The notes under the pieces were generated by a model that saw only the letters and a program-made list of their open reading frames with translations, ran no database searches and was not told the origin of the DNA. Shown in pieces: positions 5,627 to 34,307 of a DNA stretch of 64,000 bases. This stretch comes from Octopus vulgaris. Its lineage: Eukaryota. Each line of letters opens with the position of its first letter. Position 1 is the stretch's first letter. The translations under genes and the position numbers were made by a program. The DNA lies in assembly GCA_951406725.2 (NCBI GenBank), contig OX597825.1, positions 60,078,001 to 60,142,000 on the forward strand. Direction: 5' to 3'.

Positions 5627-7586
5627 AATGGGAAATCTCCAGGTATGGATGGCATATATGCGGAGTTGTTACAACATGATGGTGAGAAACAGTTGTAGCA
5701 ACTTCACTCTTTGTTTGGTAAGATATGGGCTAGTGAATCTGTACTGGAGAGATACAGTAATCGTGGTCTTGTATAAGGGAAAGGGCAATAGGAATGATTG
5801 TGGTAACTATAGGGGAATATCATAGCTTTCTGTCGTAGGAAATGTTTTATGCTGGGTACTTCTGGATCGTCTTCTGAAACACGTTGCACATTGTGTTCTT
5901 CCAGAAAGTCAATCTGGCTTTCGTGTGGGCCGTGGCACTGCTGATATGATCTTCTCAGCTAGAGAGCTTCAGGAGAAGTGTGTGGAACAGGGTGTGGATT
6001 TGTATCTGTTTTTTTGTCGATCTGACAAAAGCCTTTGATACCGTTAATAGAAAAGCATTGTTGAAAGTCCTCTAGAAACTTGGGTGTCCTGAAAAGTTCC
6101 TTACTTTGGTTAGGTCTTTCCATGAATACATGAAGAGTAGGGTTACTGTTAGAGGGAAAATGTCGGAGCCCATTTCAATACAAATTGGAGTGAAACGGGG
6201 ATATTCTGGCACCGACCCTATTTGCCATATATTTTGTGATGGTTTTATGTATTGCATTCAAAAACTGCAGATATGGTGTCTAATTCCATTATCGAACCTC
6301 AATATCAGGCGCTTTGCTGCAAAAAGAAAGGTATTTACCTCTATCATAAGAGATCTTTTGTATGCAGATGATTGTGATCTAGTAGCGCACACAGAGATTG
6401 ATATGCAACACATTTTGAATGCATTCTCTGATGCTTGCACTGCCTTACGATTGACAGTCAGTCCCAAGAAAAATGTTGTCATGCACCTACCTGCCCCTGG
6501 TAAGAAGTATAGTGTACCAAATATCTATGTGTATGGTAAACGACTTGACGTAGTTGATCAGTTTGTCTACCTGGGAAGCACTATTAATAGATATAGCAAT
6601 TAGGATGATGAAGTTCGATACAGAATTAGGAAAGCAAGTGATGCTTTCGGAAGGTTAGAAAGGCGACTGTGGAGTCGGCGAGACATATGCAGAAAGACAA
6701 AGATAAAGGTGTACAAGGCATGTGTGCTCCATTCTTTTCGCTATGCCTGCGACCCGTGGGTCACATATTGATACCACCTTAAACAGCTGGAACGTTTCCA
6801 TCAGATGTGTCTCAGACGGATCTACGGCATTAACTGGGAGGACCGCATCAGTGATCTTGAAATATTGGAAGGCTCTCGGTGCGAAAGTATAGAAGGCTCA
6901 GATGGAGTGGTCATCTGGTCAGGAGGAAGGATTCAAGGATGCCAAAACAACTCTTCTATGGAGAGTTAGCTAAAGGAGAACTACCTCCACATAAACCAAA
7001 AAAGAGGTATAGGGACTTTCTGAAGGCTTCCTTAAGAGATGCTTGCATCTCTCCTGACACATGCAAGGGCATAGCTATTGATCGTAGCAGGCGGAGAAGG
7101 ATTATGCACGAGGGGACAGGTACATTTGAGAAATCTTGAGTTGCGCATGAGAATTAAGTGGTGATGTCAGGAAGGGCATCGCTGTTACACTTTCGGATGG
7201 GAAGGGTCTTTCTATTATGCTGACATGCAGTGTCTGTGCAAGACCCTGCCTCAGTAAAGCTGAACTCAAGAGTCGTCTTCGTAGTCATAAAGCGAGACAG
7301 ATGAGTGACAACCTGGCCACTGGTGGTGGTGTTAAATACCATACTAATCATATCTGTCAGGCATGTAGAAGAGAGTGTAATTCGGCAGGAGAACTTAAAT
7401 GACATACAAAGGTACATGAAGCCCAGTTACAACTACAGCCGGCTACTGCCGGTAAAGGTTTTAGCTGCCAATTCTGTACAAGGCATTGTAGATCTTTAGC
7501 TGGGCTAAAATGTCACATTCGATCACAGCACCAATAACAGTTAAGCTTCGTGCAATGGCAATACTCGATAACGTGGGGCAGCCATC
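5627..7586 (+). mobile_element. 5'-truncated, decayed RTE-clade non-LTR retrotransposon (reverse transcriptase plus C-terminal C2H2-like zinc fingers)
   Basis: Frameshifted fragments read GKSPGMDGIYAELL, VVLYKGKGNRNDCGNYRGIS, PESQSGFRVGRGTADMIF, VDLTKAFDTV, LLYADDCDL, VVDQFVYLGSTI and RLRWSGHLVR..SRMPKQLFYGEL. Three CxxC-x12-HxxxH-like motifs lie at 7217-7530. The element ends in an (ATCT)n tail. Confidence 0.93.
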
Positions 7587-13806: not shown

Positions 13807-15027
13807 TGAGGGGTGTTCATTAAAAATTTCCCCAGACCACTTCTGGTTATTGCAGTAAACAGAACTTATAAAGGTATAATCATGCGTGTTTCTACATGCC
13901 ACATATATTGCAGCTTTCCACTAGTATTCTTCTGTCTTTTACGGCTGCTGAAGTGGACTAAGGTGTTATGATGGAGGCAGTTGAATGCAAATCAGTGATC
14001 AGGTTCGTATTCTTGAAAGGGTGTACACCGAAAGAGACTTTCGATGAGACGAAAGAAGTTTATGGTGACAATGCACCATCATATGACGTAGTCTAGCACT
14101 GTCATCACCAGTTCAAATGTGGTCGGTCATCAGTGGAATCAGCTCATATTCCTGGACGACTGCATTCTGCCGTTGATGACGATACCATCGATAAAGTGGA
14201 AGCCGCCATTTCAGGGGATCGCCGAATAGCTATTCGGCACTAGTCGAAGAAGTGAAGATAAATGTAGGGTCCGTGGAAAAAAATCATTCAAACATTTCTA
14301 CATGCGAAAGTTGTCAGCACGATGGATTTCCCGGATGCTCACACCTTTTTAGTAGCAGAAACGAGTCAATTTCTCACAGGACCTTATGGCAATATGCTAA
14401 GAAAACAAGGAGGACTTTTTCGGCAGACTTATCACACAAGATGAAACATGGGTCCATCACTAAGATCTTGAGACTAAAGTCCAGTCGAAGCAATGGAGGC
14501 ATGACAACTCACCACCTCCAAAGAAAGCTCGTGTCTAAACCTCAGCAGGTAAGGTTATACAGTCTTTTGGGTCCTGTGCGGAGTAGTGATGATGGATTTT
14601 CTGGAAAAGGCCACCACAATTAACGGGGCATGTTTTGCTTTGCTGCTGCAGAAATTACGGGATGTCATCAAAGCAGAGAGGCGTTACATTCTGACCAAAG
14701 ACGTCCGTCTCCTCCAAGAAAACATCCCAGATCACAATGCGCATGTTGTCCAGATGAAATCCTTCCTGATTACCCTTAATCTCCCGTCCTCGCACCATCT
14801 CACTTCCATCTCTTTCCAACTAACTATGAAGTCTTTTTTGAAGGGGAAGCACTTTTTGGATCATGACGCAACCTACCGACTTCTACAGACGATGTCTTCA
14901 TAGCTGCATAAAGAGATGGCAGAAGTGTGTGGCGGCTATGTAGAGAAGGACTAAAAATTATGTCAAGTTTCGTTTATCCCATTCCTTGGGAAGTTGGTCA
15001 AAGGAAATATTTAATGAACACTCCTCG
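13807..15027 (+). mobile_element. Decayed mariner-type DNA transposon
   Basis: Imperfect TIRs of about 35 bp ((C)GAGG(G/A)GTGTTCATTAAA.ATTTCC), with a TA at the right end. Broken transposase fragments read LSARWISRMLT, RLITQDETWVHH, RLLQENIPDH and P*SPVLAPSHFHLF (a decayed YSPDLAPSD). Confidence 0.92.
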
Positions 15028-28533: not shown

Positions 28534-29582
28534 TCTACATATAAGCACATATACATTTACACACACAGACGCACACGCACACATATATATGGGGTGGGGC
28601 AACTATGTTGTTCTCTGTTACAAACTCACTGACAGCCCATGCTACATCGAAAGCACGGCACCGTTTTCAGCTGCGTCTCATTATCAATTTCTCTATTTCT
28701 ACCAATTCTGCATCCATGCATTCGACACTCAGTCTCAACGTGTAGTCCAGCCGAAGTCGCCAGCCCCACGTTGATGATTTGAATTACACCTCATTTGCTG
28801 TAACAAATTCAGCCTAAGTATACACATATATGCGAAACGAGACGAAGAACAGGTGAAAAATTATCGAAGAATTCCAGGGACATTCGACTAAATTTATGAG
28901 CTGCCATTTGTCAGTTGTGAAAAGCATATCATACATCACTGCACCGTTTCGGTTTCTGTTTTCTAACCAACAGCTGCACCAAATTTAATGAGCAACGTGA
29001 TCAGTCACAAATGCTCCATTTTAGAGGAACTTGATCCTATGAATAAATTATTCATACAGGTAATATTTAATAGCATACGTCGAGAAAATGTTTATATGCT
29101 AGCCAAAAACATATACACATATATTATTATAATCTACTAAAAACATTAACAAAATATAACGTGATAAACGTGCATACATTTATAAATTCATAACACAGGT
29201 ACAAAACCTATTGTTTACACATAAACATTATGTACGAGACAGATAATGATAATCGTAAATCTGTCATGCACACCGATTGACCTCTATAATTTACAGAAAC
29301 TCTTTTCTCACTCAGTTGGAAACTGTAGCCAATCTCTCTTTTCAGTTTCAACGTGCTTATTTACTAACGTGGCATGTGTTTTAATTCCTTACTACATCTC
29401 CATTATTTTGCTTTTCATCTTTCTCCGAGGAGGGAAAATAATCCGGAGCGTAAAACATTATACGATCAATTTCCTTTAGTCTAATATCAAACTAACAAGC
29501 GAAATTTGTGCTTCTGATCAAATTTTTCTTCTGTTAAGATACCGTATATGATACATACTTACATACATACATACATACATAC

Positions 29583-29753: not shown

Positions 29754-29933
29754 ACATACATAAATACTACATACATATATCTATATATACCAAATGAAAG
29801 ACGAAAGATGGAATATACAAACATTTATTAATCCGACAATTATTTCGACACATCTAGTAAGCTAAAAGGCATAAGGCATTCGTTTTATTATCCGTTATAT
29901 ATATATGTTTTATATATATATATATATATATAT

Positions 29934-32416
29934 TTCAACAATTGAGGGTAAAATTAATTAATTATTAATCAATTTCACCAAGTATTCGGTATGTAAAGGG
30001 ACCATTTTAGGCGAATTCAAAATATTACATTATGTATAAGGGCTTAGTAAAATAAATTACTTTGCCACATACTGAACTCATTAGAAATAGCAGCTAAAGA
30101 AATTTCTTCAGCTATTTCTAATACTTAAAGAAGATCTCTCTCAGATAGTGTTTGCCTAAACCAACTCACAAAGGTATGGGGGAAAAAACATTAAAAAATC
30201 AAGTGCAAAGGTTATTTGAGAACGTACGTTTCTAGATTAGTCAATTCGACATTTCTTTCGTCAGCTCAGAATTCCTTGAATCGGATTTGGGAACACTGAA
30301 AGTTGGGAGCATACCCTTTCGGCTTCTTATCACTTCTAGAATTCTGCTCGAACTAAAAGTGCTACCAAATTCGAATATGCAAGCGAAGAATTTCTGCTCT
30401 CCCCTTTCCACCAGCGTGGGTTAAAATTGACAAACACCATGTATTAACGGTGAAAACCTCAGCATTTAACAGAGAAAGATGAATTATAATTTCAACAATT
30501 GAGGGTAAAATTAATTAATTATTAATCAATTTCACCAAGCATTCAGTATGTAAAGGGACCATTTTAGGCGAATTCAAAATATTACATTATGTATAAGGGC
30601 TTAGTAAAATAAATTACTTTGCCACATACTGAACTCATTAGAAATAGCAGCTAAAGAAATTTCTTCAGCTATTTCTAATACTTAAAGAAGATCTCTCTCA
30701 GATATGTTTGCCTAAACCAACTCACAAAGGTATGGGGGGAAAAACATTAAAAAATCAAGTGCAAAGGTTATTTGAGAACATACGTTTCTAGATTAGTCAA
30801 TTCGACATTTCTTTCGTCAGCTCAGAATTCCTTGAATCGGATTTGGGAACACTGAAAGTTGGGAGCATACCCTTTCGGCTTCTTATCACTTCTAGAATTC
30901 TGCTCGAACTAAAAGTGCTACCAAATTCGAATATGCAAGCGAAGAATTTCTGCTCTCCCCTTTCCACCAGCGTGGGTTAAAATTGACAAACACCATGTAT
31001 TAACGGTGAAAACCGAAAGGGTATGCTCCCAACTTTCAGTGTTCCCAAATCCGATTCAAGGAATTCTGAGCTGACGAAAGAAATGTCGAATTGACTAATC
31101 TAGAAACGTACGTTCTCAAATAACATTTGCACTTGATTTTTGAATGTTTTTTCCCCCATACCTTTGTGAGTTGGTTTAGGCAAACACTATCTGAGAGAGA
31201 TCTTCTTTAAGTATTAGAAATAGCTGAAGAAATTTCTTTAGCTGCTATTTCTAATGAGTTCAGTATGTGGCAAAGTAATTTATTTTACTAAGCCCTTATA
31301 CATAATGTAATATTTTGAATTCGCCTAAAATGGTCCCTTTACATACTGAATACTTGGTGAAATTGATTAATAATTAATTAATTTACCCTCAATTGTTGAA
31401 ATTATAATTCATCTTTCTCTGTTAAATGCTGAGGTTTTCACCGTTAATACATGGTGTTTGTCAATTTTAACCCACGCTGGTGGAAAGGGGAGAGCAGAAA
31501 TTCTTCGCTTGCATATTCGAATTTGGTAGCACTTTTAGTTCGAGCAGAATTCTAGAAGTGATAAGAAGCCGAAAGGGTATGCTCCCAACTTTCAGTGTTC
31601 CCAAATCCGATTCAAGGAATTCTGAGCTGACGAAAGAAATGTCGAATTGACTAATCTAGAAACGTACGTTCTCAAATAACCTTTGCACTTGATTTATTAA
31701 TGTTTTTTCCCCATACCTTTGTGAGTTGGTTTAGGCAAACACTATCTGAGAGAGATCTTCTTTAAGTATTAGAAATAGCTGAAGAAATTTCTTTAGCTGC
31801 TATTTCTAATGAGTTCAGTATGTGGCAAAGTAATTTATTTTACTAAGCCCTTATACATAATGTAATATTTTGAATTCGCCTAAAATGGTCCCTTTACATA
31901 CTGAATACTTGGTGAAATTGATTAATAATTAATTAATTTTACCCTCAATTGTTGAAATTATAATTCATCTTTCTCTGTTAAATGCTGCGGTTTTCACCGT
32001 TAATACATGGTGTTTGACAATTTTAACCCACGCTGGTGGAAAGGGGAGAGCAGAAATTCTTCGCTTGCATATTCGAATTTGGTAGCACTTTTAGTTCGAG
32101 CAGAATTCTAGAAGTGATAAGAAGCCGAAAGGGTATGCTCCCAACTTTCAGTGTTCCCAAATCCGATTCAAGGAATTCTGAGCTGACGAAAGAAATGTCG
32201 AATTGACTAATCTAGAAACGTACGTTCTCAAATAACCTTTGCACTTGATTTTTGAATGTTTTTTCCCCATACCTTTGTGAGTTGGTTTAGGCAAACACTA
32301 TCTCAGAGAGATCTTCTTTAAGTATTAGAAATAGCTGAAGAAATTTCTTTAGCTGCTATTTAATGAGTTCAGTATGTGGCAAAGTAATTTATTTTACTAA
32401 GCCCTTATACATAATG

Positions 32417-32417
<1 letters not shown>
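29934..32417. mobile_element. Head-to-head array of a 556-557-bp non-coding HHR monomer (retrozyme or Penelope pLTR-like; family F10)
   Basis: About 1.9 copies run in one orientation (29934-31014) and about 2.5 in the other (31013-32417). The copies are near-identical, have no ORF of 60 aa or more, and both ends abut (TA)n. Confidence 0.9.
31067..31118 (+). ncRNA. Type I hammerhead ribozyme, one per monomer (also 31623-31674 +, 32179-32230 +, 30217-30268 -, 30773-30824 -)
   Basis: UGAG-CUGACGA-aAGA.aau.GUC(gaauu)GAC.uaa.UCUa-GAAAC(guac)GUU/CUCA. Stem III is the palindrome AACGUACGUU and stem I extends through an internal loop to AAGG/CCUU. Confidence 0.85.
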
Positions 32418-32503
<86 letters not shown>

Positions 32504-32505
<2 letters not shown>

Positions 32506-33785
32506 GGGTGGGGAAGCAAAATTTACAATATTTTGAGGCAGGGATTGAAAGACAGTGTATGACTAATTAGTTTACTGAAAGTCATGAGAATTTATTTGCC
32601 GCAAGAAAATTTACATAATAGAAAATATTTTTATTCTATGTGTCCCCCTTCATTCTCAATAACTGCCTTCATATGCTTCCTGAAACTTGCACAGGCGTTC
32701 CTGAAATATTCGGGAGACAACTTATCCCATTCTTCTTTATTAGCATCTTTAAGAGAGTCGACATTGCTGTGTGATGTTCTATTGGTAGCATATTCTAAAA
32801 CGCCCCAAATAGCATCATCCAGAGGGTTTAGATCTGGGCTAGAAGCCGGCCATAAACATAAAATTGCTAAAGTTGGATTTGCAGAAATCTTTTATTTTTC
32901 TAGCTGTGTGGGCTGGAGCACCATCCCGTGTCCATACATAATTACCATCTGAGTAGTTTGCTTTAAGCCATGGCAATATCTGGTATCTCAGATTCTTGTA
33001 GTAAGTATAAACATTGATCTTTTCATCAGCTTTGTAGAATTTTATAGGCGTCTTCTTTCCGTTGGAAGCCACAACACCAAACGCCATAACTTAAGCAGGA
33101 TGTTTTGTTTTGAATGTCCCCTTAACCTCAGCTGTTGATTTTGTTATAAATCTGTCATTTCTGTGGTTCAGAACAGCATCGACAGTGAAGATCTTTTCAT
33201 CTGAAAAGATCGTTACAATGGAGGACTTTTCTTGAACCATGTAATAATTTTCTTGCACCTTTCCAATCTCTTTTCCTTCATAGCTGTTGTCAACAAGTAT
33301 TTTGGTGTTCTTCTGTAAGATTGTAACCTCAAATCATATTTTACTGCATTTCTAATGGTCTTCTTGTCTACCTCAAGTTCAATTGCTATTTTTCTCATGG
33401 ATTTGGTTGGATCCTTTAGGATTTTGGATTTGAGAGCTTTAATAAAAGCTTTGGTACGTTTTTTGTTGATTCCTCTACTTCCAGACATCCTCGTAATTGT
33501 TTTGCTAATAGTCATTCTATTCTTTAAATTATAAACAGTCTTTATAGACACTCCAACTAGTCTTGAAATCTCCTTTGGTGTGACTAGTGCATTCAGCAAA
33601 TCACACACTCTTTGACATTTGCTTTCCTGATTACTCATATGGGCTAAAAGTTTCTGCAAAGGTAAGGTTAACAGTTTTAGGTATGATTATGACATCAATA
33701 TATGCTAGGTTTCAAAACAATTGACTTAGTGCCCTCTGAGAAAAAGCAACTTAACTTTCATTGTAAATTTTGCTTCCCCACCCAA
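32504..33785 (-). mobile_element. Decayed Tc1/mariner element, maT (DD37D)-like
   Basis: TIRs read GGGTGGGGAAGCAAAATTTACAAT and sit in TA runs. Transposase pieces are the HTH ORF 33213-33659, IFSDEKIFTV, YVWTRDGAPAHTA and, after a frameshift, LWPASSPDLNPLD. Restoring an 8-nt deletion gives D37D spacing. Confidence 0.9.
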
Positions 33786-34307
33786 TATATATATATGTGT
33801 GTGTGTGTGGGGGGGGGTATGTGTGCGTGTGTGTGTATAAGTATGTATGGATATATATATATGTGTATTTATATATGTCTATAACTATCTATCTACCTAT
33901 ATACGTACATATATATATATTACTGTTGATGACTTCAATTTATACCGTAGTTGATTCAATCAATTTAACATTAAACTGAAGAATAACTCAATTCTTTTAA
34001 AGTTCTTAGTAAACTTTTATAAGGCATGCGTTGACAGTGAATTCACTGTTTCGCCTTACTCGCCGACGTCAGAAAAACTGAAGATGTCTCAAGGAGAAGA
34101 TTATGCTAACGTGATGTCATTTAAGAATATCGAGATGCGTATCGTGCTTCAGATTCTGAATTCCTTGGCATTGAAAGAGTTTCGTGTATTGTAGGGACAT
34201 CTTGGCTTTCTACATTTTTATGAAACAAATTGAATATATTGCAATCGTCAGTGATAATCGACAAGAACCCCCAACCGCACATATTTAATATAATATAATA
34301 TACTATG

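Follow-up and report, generated by a model that had tools for sequence, protein, structure and literature searches.

A head-to-head array of 556-nt hammerhead units in Octopus vulgaris: a candidate retrozyme insertion of Penelope type

The 64,000-nt stretch of Octopus vulgaris DNA analysed here (contig OX597825.1, positions 60,078,001 to 60,142,000; hereafter the window) contains, at 29934-32417, two tandem arms of ~556-nt units with a hammerhead ribozyme motif in each unit, joined head to head. On balance, we read this array as a recent insertion of a retrozyme without long terminal repeats (non-LTR retrozyme), written into a cut TA repeat by a Penelope-type reverse transcriptase (RT) from one RNA, probably a circle. 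The copies of this element are dispersed, lie in TA targets, have 3' ends fixed at two sites (the long end E1 and the short end E2) that are paired with each other, carry one haplotype per insertion and pass seamlessly over the predicted ribozyme cut site. The array is one young insertion of this dispersed family, and the locus is ordinary within it.

Alignment to the reference unit 31433-31988 (positions within this unit are given below as m numbers) confirmed the geometry described in an initial annotation of this DNA. The head-to-head array consists of 1.94 units pointing left and 2.53 pointing right, with a period of 555-557 nt and 98.4-99.2% identity of the units to the reference; the CC at the join is common to both arms, and the two outer ends lie at different unit positions (~m525 and m431), both abutting (TA)n. 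The units are non-coding, as stated there: no open reading frame (ORF) of at least 100 aa overlaps the array (GC content ~34%), the longest frame of the unit has no Pfam match, and tblastn with proteins of Penelope-like elements (PLEs) gave no match in the array. Five hammerhead cores are present, three consecutive on the plus strand and two on the minus strand. The features of the locus are:

29896-29933, no strand: left (TA)n target tract
29934-31014, minus strand: left arm, 1.94 units (1,081 nt), 3' end at the long end E1 (~m525), 5' end at the junction
31013-31014, no strand: CC microhomology joining the 5' ends of both arms, part of both
31013-32417, plus strand: right arm, 2.53 units (1,405 nt), 3' end at the short end E2 (m431)
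32418-32502, no strand: right (TA)n target tract
31065-31120, plus strand: hammerhead motif 1, type I (core 31071-31114), predicted cut after 31114 (GUU), covariation structure
31621-31676, plus strand: hammerhead motif 2, type I (core 31627-31670), A-A at 31634/31658, predicted cut after 31670
32177-32232, plus strand: hammerhead motif 3, type I (core 32183-32226), predicted cut after 32226
30215-30270, minus strand: hammerhead motif 4, type I (core 30221-30264)
30771-30826, minus strand: hammerhead motif 5, type I (core 30777-30820), with a single change at 30780 that disrupts the stem III palindrome
31671-32226, plus strand: predicted cut-to-cut monomer, 556 nt (others at 31115-31670, plus strand, and from 30776 down to 30221, minus strand)
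31768-31957, plus strand: conserved 3' domain with three predicted helices, containing both end points and aligning across subfamilies
31864-31957, plus strand: internal copy of the "tail", ~95 nt from E2 to E1, which stands at just one of the two outer ends

The monomer 31671-32226 has a predicted fold of -144.6 kcal/mol (z -4.87; none of 100 shuffles reached this stability), and the two additional stems noticed earlier are present both in this fold and in the alignment fold.

In the 2.8-Gb genome, a search yielded 1,755 candidates for this family; the 40 that were scored lie on many contigs, and their full-length matches are 97-100% identical. The architecture was determined for 51 loci, namely these 40 best matches and 11 loci from an exact 81-mer search (42 matches, 30 with DNA, from which those not yet in the set were added). 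In the ribozyme sense, the arms have their 3' ends at two sites ~95 nt apart, E1 at ~m525-530 and E2 at ~m427-437. Thirty-four loci are two-armed, all of them head to head, and in 31 of these one arm ends at E1 and the other at E2 (29 found by script; L123 and L159 by reading the flanks); one arm ends elsewhere in the other three (L002, L129, L157), and not a single E1+E1 or E2+E2 pair occurs among the 34. The 17 single-arm loci end at E2 (12) or at E1 (5). The inversion is no peculiarity of the locus but the rule in the family and a known feature of PLEs. Arm lengths are non-integer, with fixed 3' and scattered 5' ends; several loci have multimers in each of the two inverted arms, and the longest arm comprises 5.45 units. 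At most junctions the arms overlap by microhomologies of 0-6 nt. Note that a target duplication is unreadable within (TA)n.

These features are those of PLE insertions, which combine partial tandems with a 5'-truncated copy in inverse orientation; a tail of 30-40 bp is often present at a single end, and some PLE clades favour (TA)n targets (PMC8557442). For Poseidon of the anole, the tail was described as the stretch between two internal RT start sites; cutting and extension take place on both DNA strands, and a dimeric protein is predicted (PMC11167929). The octopus family has the inverted 5'-truncated head-to-head copy in 34/34 two-armed loci, two fixed 3' ends, a one-ended tail (longer, at ~95 nt, than the usual 30-40) and an AT-rich microsatellite target, with (TA)4+ on both sides in 47/51 loci. 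Furthermore, the same genome contains a family with RT and GIY-YIG domains in which, at locus L170, one side carries a long and the other a short end, with a ~30-nt tail and TA flanks. This family shares with the 556-nt unit this plan, a mismatch at position 10.1-11.1 of the hammerhead and an ACCC-like long end, and no sequence homology between the two was found; as a partner of the element it is a lead only. The element itself has no RT/GIY-YIG ORF and is non-autonomous. As its footprint matches described PLEs and the L170 family shows the same plan, PLEs are well supported as the carrier class, and by sequence the element is very probably mobilised by one of them.

For the question of how many templates were copied, 49 loci were used; L021 and L026 were dropped as possible duplicates of L012 (the three lie on contig C31, have a common left flank and probably represent a segmental duplication; L062, L064 and L065 are likewise insertions duplicated together with their flanks), as were arms below 93% identity or shorter than 60 nt. 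At 14 polymorphic sites, one of which (m276) adjoins a homopolymer and is a source of noise, discordance was 44/675 within an arm, 26/575 between opposite arms and 26,643/69,597 between loci, i.e., opposite arms of one insertion are 4.5% discordant vs 38% for different loci. Nineteen haplotypes are found among the 29 fully typed loci. Among the rare variants, 25 are common to all units that cover the position in their locus, 6 are found in some of these units and 90 in a single one; in the array studied here, a private C at m424 is present in all 4 covering units of both arms. Of 37 E1 arms, 8 stop at the E2 site (m410-450) vs 2.7 expected (p 0.005; the interval was picked after inspection of the data and is one of five tested), and none of 42 E2 arms does. 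In L004, the E1 arm covers exactly m437-530 and ends at E2. Such stops of E1 arms would follow if a second polymerase sat at E2 on the same RNA. Taken together, these sequence patterns make it likely that both arms of an insertion were copied from one RNA.

The predicted cut site has left no trace in the copies: 5 of 86 arms start near it vs 3.2 expected, and no indel was found there in 111 passes, so that run-off at the ribozyme cut could be rejected. This argues for a template that was continuous across the site, either a ligated circle or an uncut multimer. The many haplotypes, each with uniform long arrays, favour the circle without proving it, and we regard a circular template as the somewhat better supported of these alternatives. 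The initial proposal that rolling copying of a circular RNA gave rise to circularly permuted multimers holds insofar as a continuous, likely circular template explains the multimers; the ends are, however, no arbitrary permutations, because two fixed start points are common to the whole family.

In the mechanism that we propose, a tandem copy would be transcribed, its hammerheads would cut the RNA to 556-nt monomers, and a host ligase would close the circle. The protein of an autonomous PLE would bind the conserved 3' domain and cut both strands of (TA)n; the two freed 3' ends would then prime at E1 and E2, respectively, of a single RNA molecule, and each polymerase would continue with strand displacement for 0.1 to 5.5 rounds. 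Joining of the two cDNA ends by microhomology would produce the head-to-head junction, and failure of one strand would leave a single 5'-truncated arm.

Several observations weigh against this reading. The anole Poseidon, the only PLE so studied in vitro, uses uncut RNA as its main template, and its ribozyme needs the protein (PMC11167929). Eight of nine predicted frog retrozymes were without cleavage (bioRxiv 10.64898/2026.07.22.740005), a mispair at 10.1-11.1 normally disqualifies a hammerhead candidate, although one natural U-U case is known (PMC3088659), and the mismatch in stem II may weaken the predicted cleavage here. The isolated 81-nt motif folds no better than shuffles (z 0.49), and there is little variation within the helices of the 3' domain, with a double change in only 1 of 24 pairs; the structure modelled for this domain is therefore not proven. 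Besides the choice of the stall interval after inspection, a matching stall of E2 arms at E1 was not seen (4/42 vs 3.1 expected), and the picture within the array is not fully clean, as a G at m266 occurs only in units 1 and 3 of the right arm. Uniform master arrays, gene conversion or polishing of the assembly could likewise make the units of a locus homogeneous. The choice of 40 of the 51 loci as best matches biases the set towards long, young copies, which should not, however, favour unlike end pairs. Finally, a profile scan found no autonomous PLE ending in the 3' domain among 50 (30 + 20) of the 150 scored GIY-YIG loci, a sample from a minority of the PLE families of the genome, but only separate insertions in neighbouring TA tracts (L038, L057, L173). 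Among 120 module loci, no PLE ORF joined to the module was found; 90 locus records were searched by tblastn with a single PLE protein and 30 with three. The short motifs of the module are also absent from the Naiad/Chlamys supplement of PMC8557442, as far as its line breaks and the cutting of its long runs do not hide a motif.

The strongest competitor keeps the same element and the PLE machinery and replaces the circle by a linear template, i.e., an uncut multimer transcribed from a small number of uniform masters or else a linear monomer with repeated self-jumping, the hammerhead being weak or gated by a protein. Uncut RNA as the dominant substrate of the Poseidon protein, insertion by its ribozyme mutants (PMC11167929) and the A-A mismatch at the base of stem II all speak for it, and a linear multimer likewise predicts continuity over the cut site and one haplotype per insertion. 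However, the 19 haplotypes in 29 loci would call for many different uniform masters, none of them shorter than its longest progeny (5.45 units), and no route for array lengthening is offered. Self-jumping would be expected to scar or truncate the copies at the cut site, which is not seen, and the ribozyme fold covaries across subfamilies. We consider a linear template rather unlikely, though a serious alternative to the circle.

Insertion of a single unit, followed by minisatellite-like growth through unequal crossing-over or slippage and by gene conversion that equalised the arms, is improbable. Such later growth, proposed for vertebrate retrozymes (bioRxiv 10.64898/2026.07.22.740005), predicts the similar units within a locus, but not non-integer arms with fixed 3' and scattered 5' ends, nor loci in which both inverted arms are multimeric; moreover, the 90 rare variants confined to single units imply that homogenisation is not strong. 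Even less credit is due to an inversion by fold-back self-priming instead of two primers, the model for rotifer Penelopes, in which head-to-head inverted pseudo-LTRs (pLTRs) were read in this way (PMC3846280). Fold-back predicts near-equal start positions of the arms and is largely contradicted by the distances, which are evenly spread (median 113 nt; 2/34 within 20 nt, 2.5 expected), and fold-back junctions were not seen; the model also gives no reason for the second arm to end exactly at the other fixed site. Misassembly, which the initial annotation had named as a possible flaw, i.e., a chimeric or fold-back long read, can practically be dismissed in spite of the difficulty of assembling near-identical inverted repeats (PMC8557442), since 33 further loci share the two-armed plan and its single rule with different junctions, the arms are no mirror images and have different fixed ends, and the units differ at a few sites.

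In the hammerhead, the core elements CUGANGA, GAAA and NUH as well as stems I and III are all present in a type I arrangement. Accordingly, the claim of one canonical hammerhead per unit stands as to one type I motif with all core letters, but not as to stem II: its base is the mismatch A-A (31634/31658), above which lie three pairs, then a 3x3 internal loop and finally a short hairpin. The short stem III has a palindromic sequence (AACGUACGUU in motif 2), a feature of hammerheads that work as dimers (PMC7229834). No Rfam hammerhead match was obtained, either at the gathering score or, for 31400-32000, at E values up to 10. The core pattern of the wider superfamily has 3,375 exact matches in the genome and none in the control. 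Among 45 distinct cores, in which these positions were free in the search pattern, pair 10.1-11.1 is A-A in 39, A-C in 4, U-U in 1 and G-C in 1, i.e., unpaired in 44. One comparison suggests that the AAU/UAA internal loop in stem II is conserved; the 45 cores are no evidence for this, since their search pattern required the loop.

For covariation, 14 sequences were hand-chosen to span the subfamilies. The 3-8 contact is C-G in 8, U-G in 4 and U-A in 2 of them, 10.1-11.1 is unpaired in 13, and 11 of 17 pairs have changed on both sides. None of 500 shuffles reached the score, which fell from 0.52 to at most 0.13 when the partners were slid; the latter control is the weightier, as related sequences can beat shuffles without structure. 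Because of this covariation across subfamilies, the hammerhead fold appears to be maintained by selection, and the stem II mismatch, judged from the alignments, is a family trait rather than decay. A common change 31658 A>T in contigs of presumed RNA runs is no secure sign of a restored stem II pair, the sister subfamily L197 having U-U there; a partner change at 31634 is not among the variants listed for these contigs. An ATG in stem II (31638-31649; also in L074, L088 and L106), followed by two codons and a stop, is conserved in three subfamilies. The ORF of the anole Poseidon starts in stem II (PMC11167929), and the ATG is possibly a relic start codon, possibly chance. Next to the array, a decayed hammerhead-like string at 29790-29895 (minus strand) ends at the left TA tract and resembles the motif of L051; possibly, a different and older PLE family has left its 3' end here.

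Sister families, found via diverged copies, have units of 555, 565 and 578 nt. They align with the 556-nt unit over the ribozyme and the 3' domain and are ~61-76% identical over the whole unit. The variable part is clearly homologous only between subfamilies A and D (0/200 shuffles); the pair C-D is weak (6/200) and A-C not significant (60/200). No ORF remnants are recognisable in it.

By sequence criteria, the element belongs to the non-LTR retrozymes of animals, and the earlier retrozyme call holds. It shares with the metazoan elements non-coding, low-GC tandems with one type I hammerhead per unit, a dispersed occurrence in many copies (thousands in the described cases) and a stable predicted fold (PMC7229834, Cervera and de la Pena 2020). 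Circles were demonstrated there in coral, mussel and axolotl, whereas the one proposed here is predicted, and PLEs were named as the likely carriers. Axolotl HHR_Amex2, whose best cleavage is seen in the dimer, likewise combines a mismatch at the stem II base (U-U, in contrast to A-A here) with a palindromic stem III. Fixed paired ends and back-to-back arms do not appear in the available text of that source. The unit was said to be larger than described animal retrozymes; it does exceed the 170-400 nt of PMC7229834, but size does not exclude a retrozyme, because 556 nt is within the 51-972 bp of the vertebrate retrozymes of Li, Clavereau and Pollet 2026, who regard retrozymes as non-autonomous derivatives of PLEs (bioRxiv 10.64898/2026.07.22.740005). 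These vertebrate elements are of the same class and also share their genomes with PLEs. Their PLE link consists in co-occurrence and pLTR homology, whereas here it is the insertion footprint, no pLTR homology to an autonomous element having been found in the 50 GIY-YIG loci scanned; their tandems were attributed preferentially to later local amplification, whereas the arm structure in octopus argues for multimers at insertion. The supplements of this preprint may list similar families. Plant-type LTR retrozymes do not fit, the motif being type I and the layout tandem (no search for a primer-binding site or polypurine tract was made).

The endonuclease-containing (EN+) PLEs Poseidon (PMC11167929), Neptune, Naiad and Chlamys (PMC8557442) have in common with the octopus family two internal starts, a one-ended tail, an inverted 5'-truncated copy, partial tandems, a TA-repeat target and microhomology at the 5' junction; non-autonomous Chlamys elements also form multicopy head-to-tail insertions (PMC8557442). 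Different here are the missing ORF, the tail of ~95 instead of 30-40 nt and the frequent presence of more than one unit in both arms. In the twin priming of L1, two primers from both target strands on one RNA give rise to a 5' inversion. L004, with its E1 arm ending at E2, looks exactly so. The octopus element differs from L1 in the fixed internal starts of the primers, the lack of a poly(A) tail and arms that usually pass each other's start.

The element differs from described retrozymes by its long tail, its strict end pairing, two arms that are each multimeric and its A-A hammerhead. No published description of the family, of these features or of the pairing rule was found by title and abstract start, in a search that did not extend to most subscription journals, Repbase or Dfam. 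Both the route by which animal retrozymes enter DNA and the origin of the tandem, inverted, one-tailed insertions of PLEs are called open questions in PMC8557442, PMC7229834 and bioRxiv 10.64898/2026.07.22.740005. The present family offers countable rules, namely E1 with E2, a single haplotype per insertion, the stall of E1 arms at E2 and a scarless cut site, and, as a short RNA with mapped start points, makes the circle and twin-priming models directly testable. Since its hammerhead variant is missed by Rfam and rejected by standard filters, such families may be under-counted. We tentatively suggest that a long-lived superfamily of viroid-like RNA circles of 555-580 nt, in which a particular hammerhead variant has kept its mismatch at the stem II base, parasitises Penelope enzymes, and that an insertion is made by one dimeric enzyme which primes both DNA strands at two fixed sites of one circle and rolls round it. 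If true, this would explain the long-puzzling tandem, inverted and tailed structure of all Penelope-like elements and would supply a compact RNA substrate for testing. Nothing points to a host function of the element.

The genome contains 6,136 candidates for GIY-YIG elements, several of them with 781-aa frames and with RT and GIY-YIG domains. By analogy with the description in PMC8557442, their cysteine linker is read as Neptune-type. The dominant PLE family with the 781-aa frames (L036, L040, L042, L047, L057) ends in a short hammerhead with a U3-A8 core variant. In the ORF-bearing, two-ended family with a ~30-nt tail (L170, L172, L182, L183, L189), the hammerhead has U-U at 10.1-11.1, and 3 of the 5 copies have C4 for U4 in the core.

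As for expression, none of the runs recorded as RNA holds the unit sequence (14 of the 19 listed runs are RNA by guess only). Contigs of four presumed-RNA runs cover the unit in 30, 30, 30 and 26 of 30 bins. A variant head-to-tail join is present in contigs of two such runs; contigs cannot reveal ends, strand, level or circularity. A promoter of the small nuclear RNA (snRNA) type is not supported: with a matrix built on six upstream regions of U1/U2, the best scores in four subfamily units were at most 5.2 vs 6-39 for left-out true promoters, and the best matches lie within an AT-rich hairpin and are not conserved. The U1 and most U2 genes (L220-L249) have AATTAA-N26-ATCAGT upstream, ~58 nt before the start, which is absent from L225 and L232. 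Transcription across the inversion, as proposed initially, is geometrically capable of giving ~1 kb of double-stranded RNA. RNA editing fixed in the copies is likewise not supported: the variants common to all units include 3 A>G and 8 T>C among 25 and the single-unit ones 9 A>G and 7 T>C among 90, so that the rare variants of the family copies show no A-to-G excess.

In the remainder of the window, a Pfam scan of 131 of the 151 filtered frames for host genes gave only transposon pieces and one low-complexity match. At 6076-6600 and 14553-14900 lie pieces of an RVT_1 reverse transcriptase (below cut-off) and of a mariner transposase (Transposase_1). Directly after the right (TA)n follows, at 32503-33786 (minus strand), a Tc1/mariner-type remnant with visible inverted ends and a weak HTH_Tnp_Tc3_2 match below cut-off, which is independent of the array. 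An 84-nt open frame between AG and GT at 28975-29058 could be an exon of a host gene on the plus strand.

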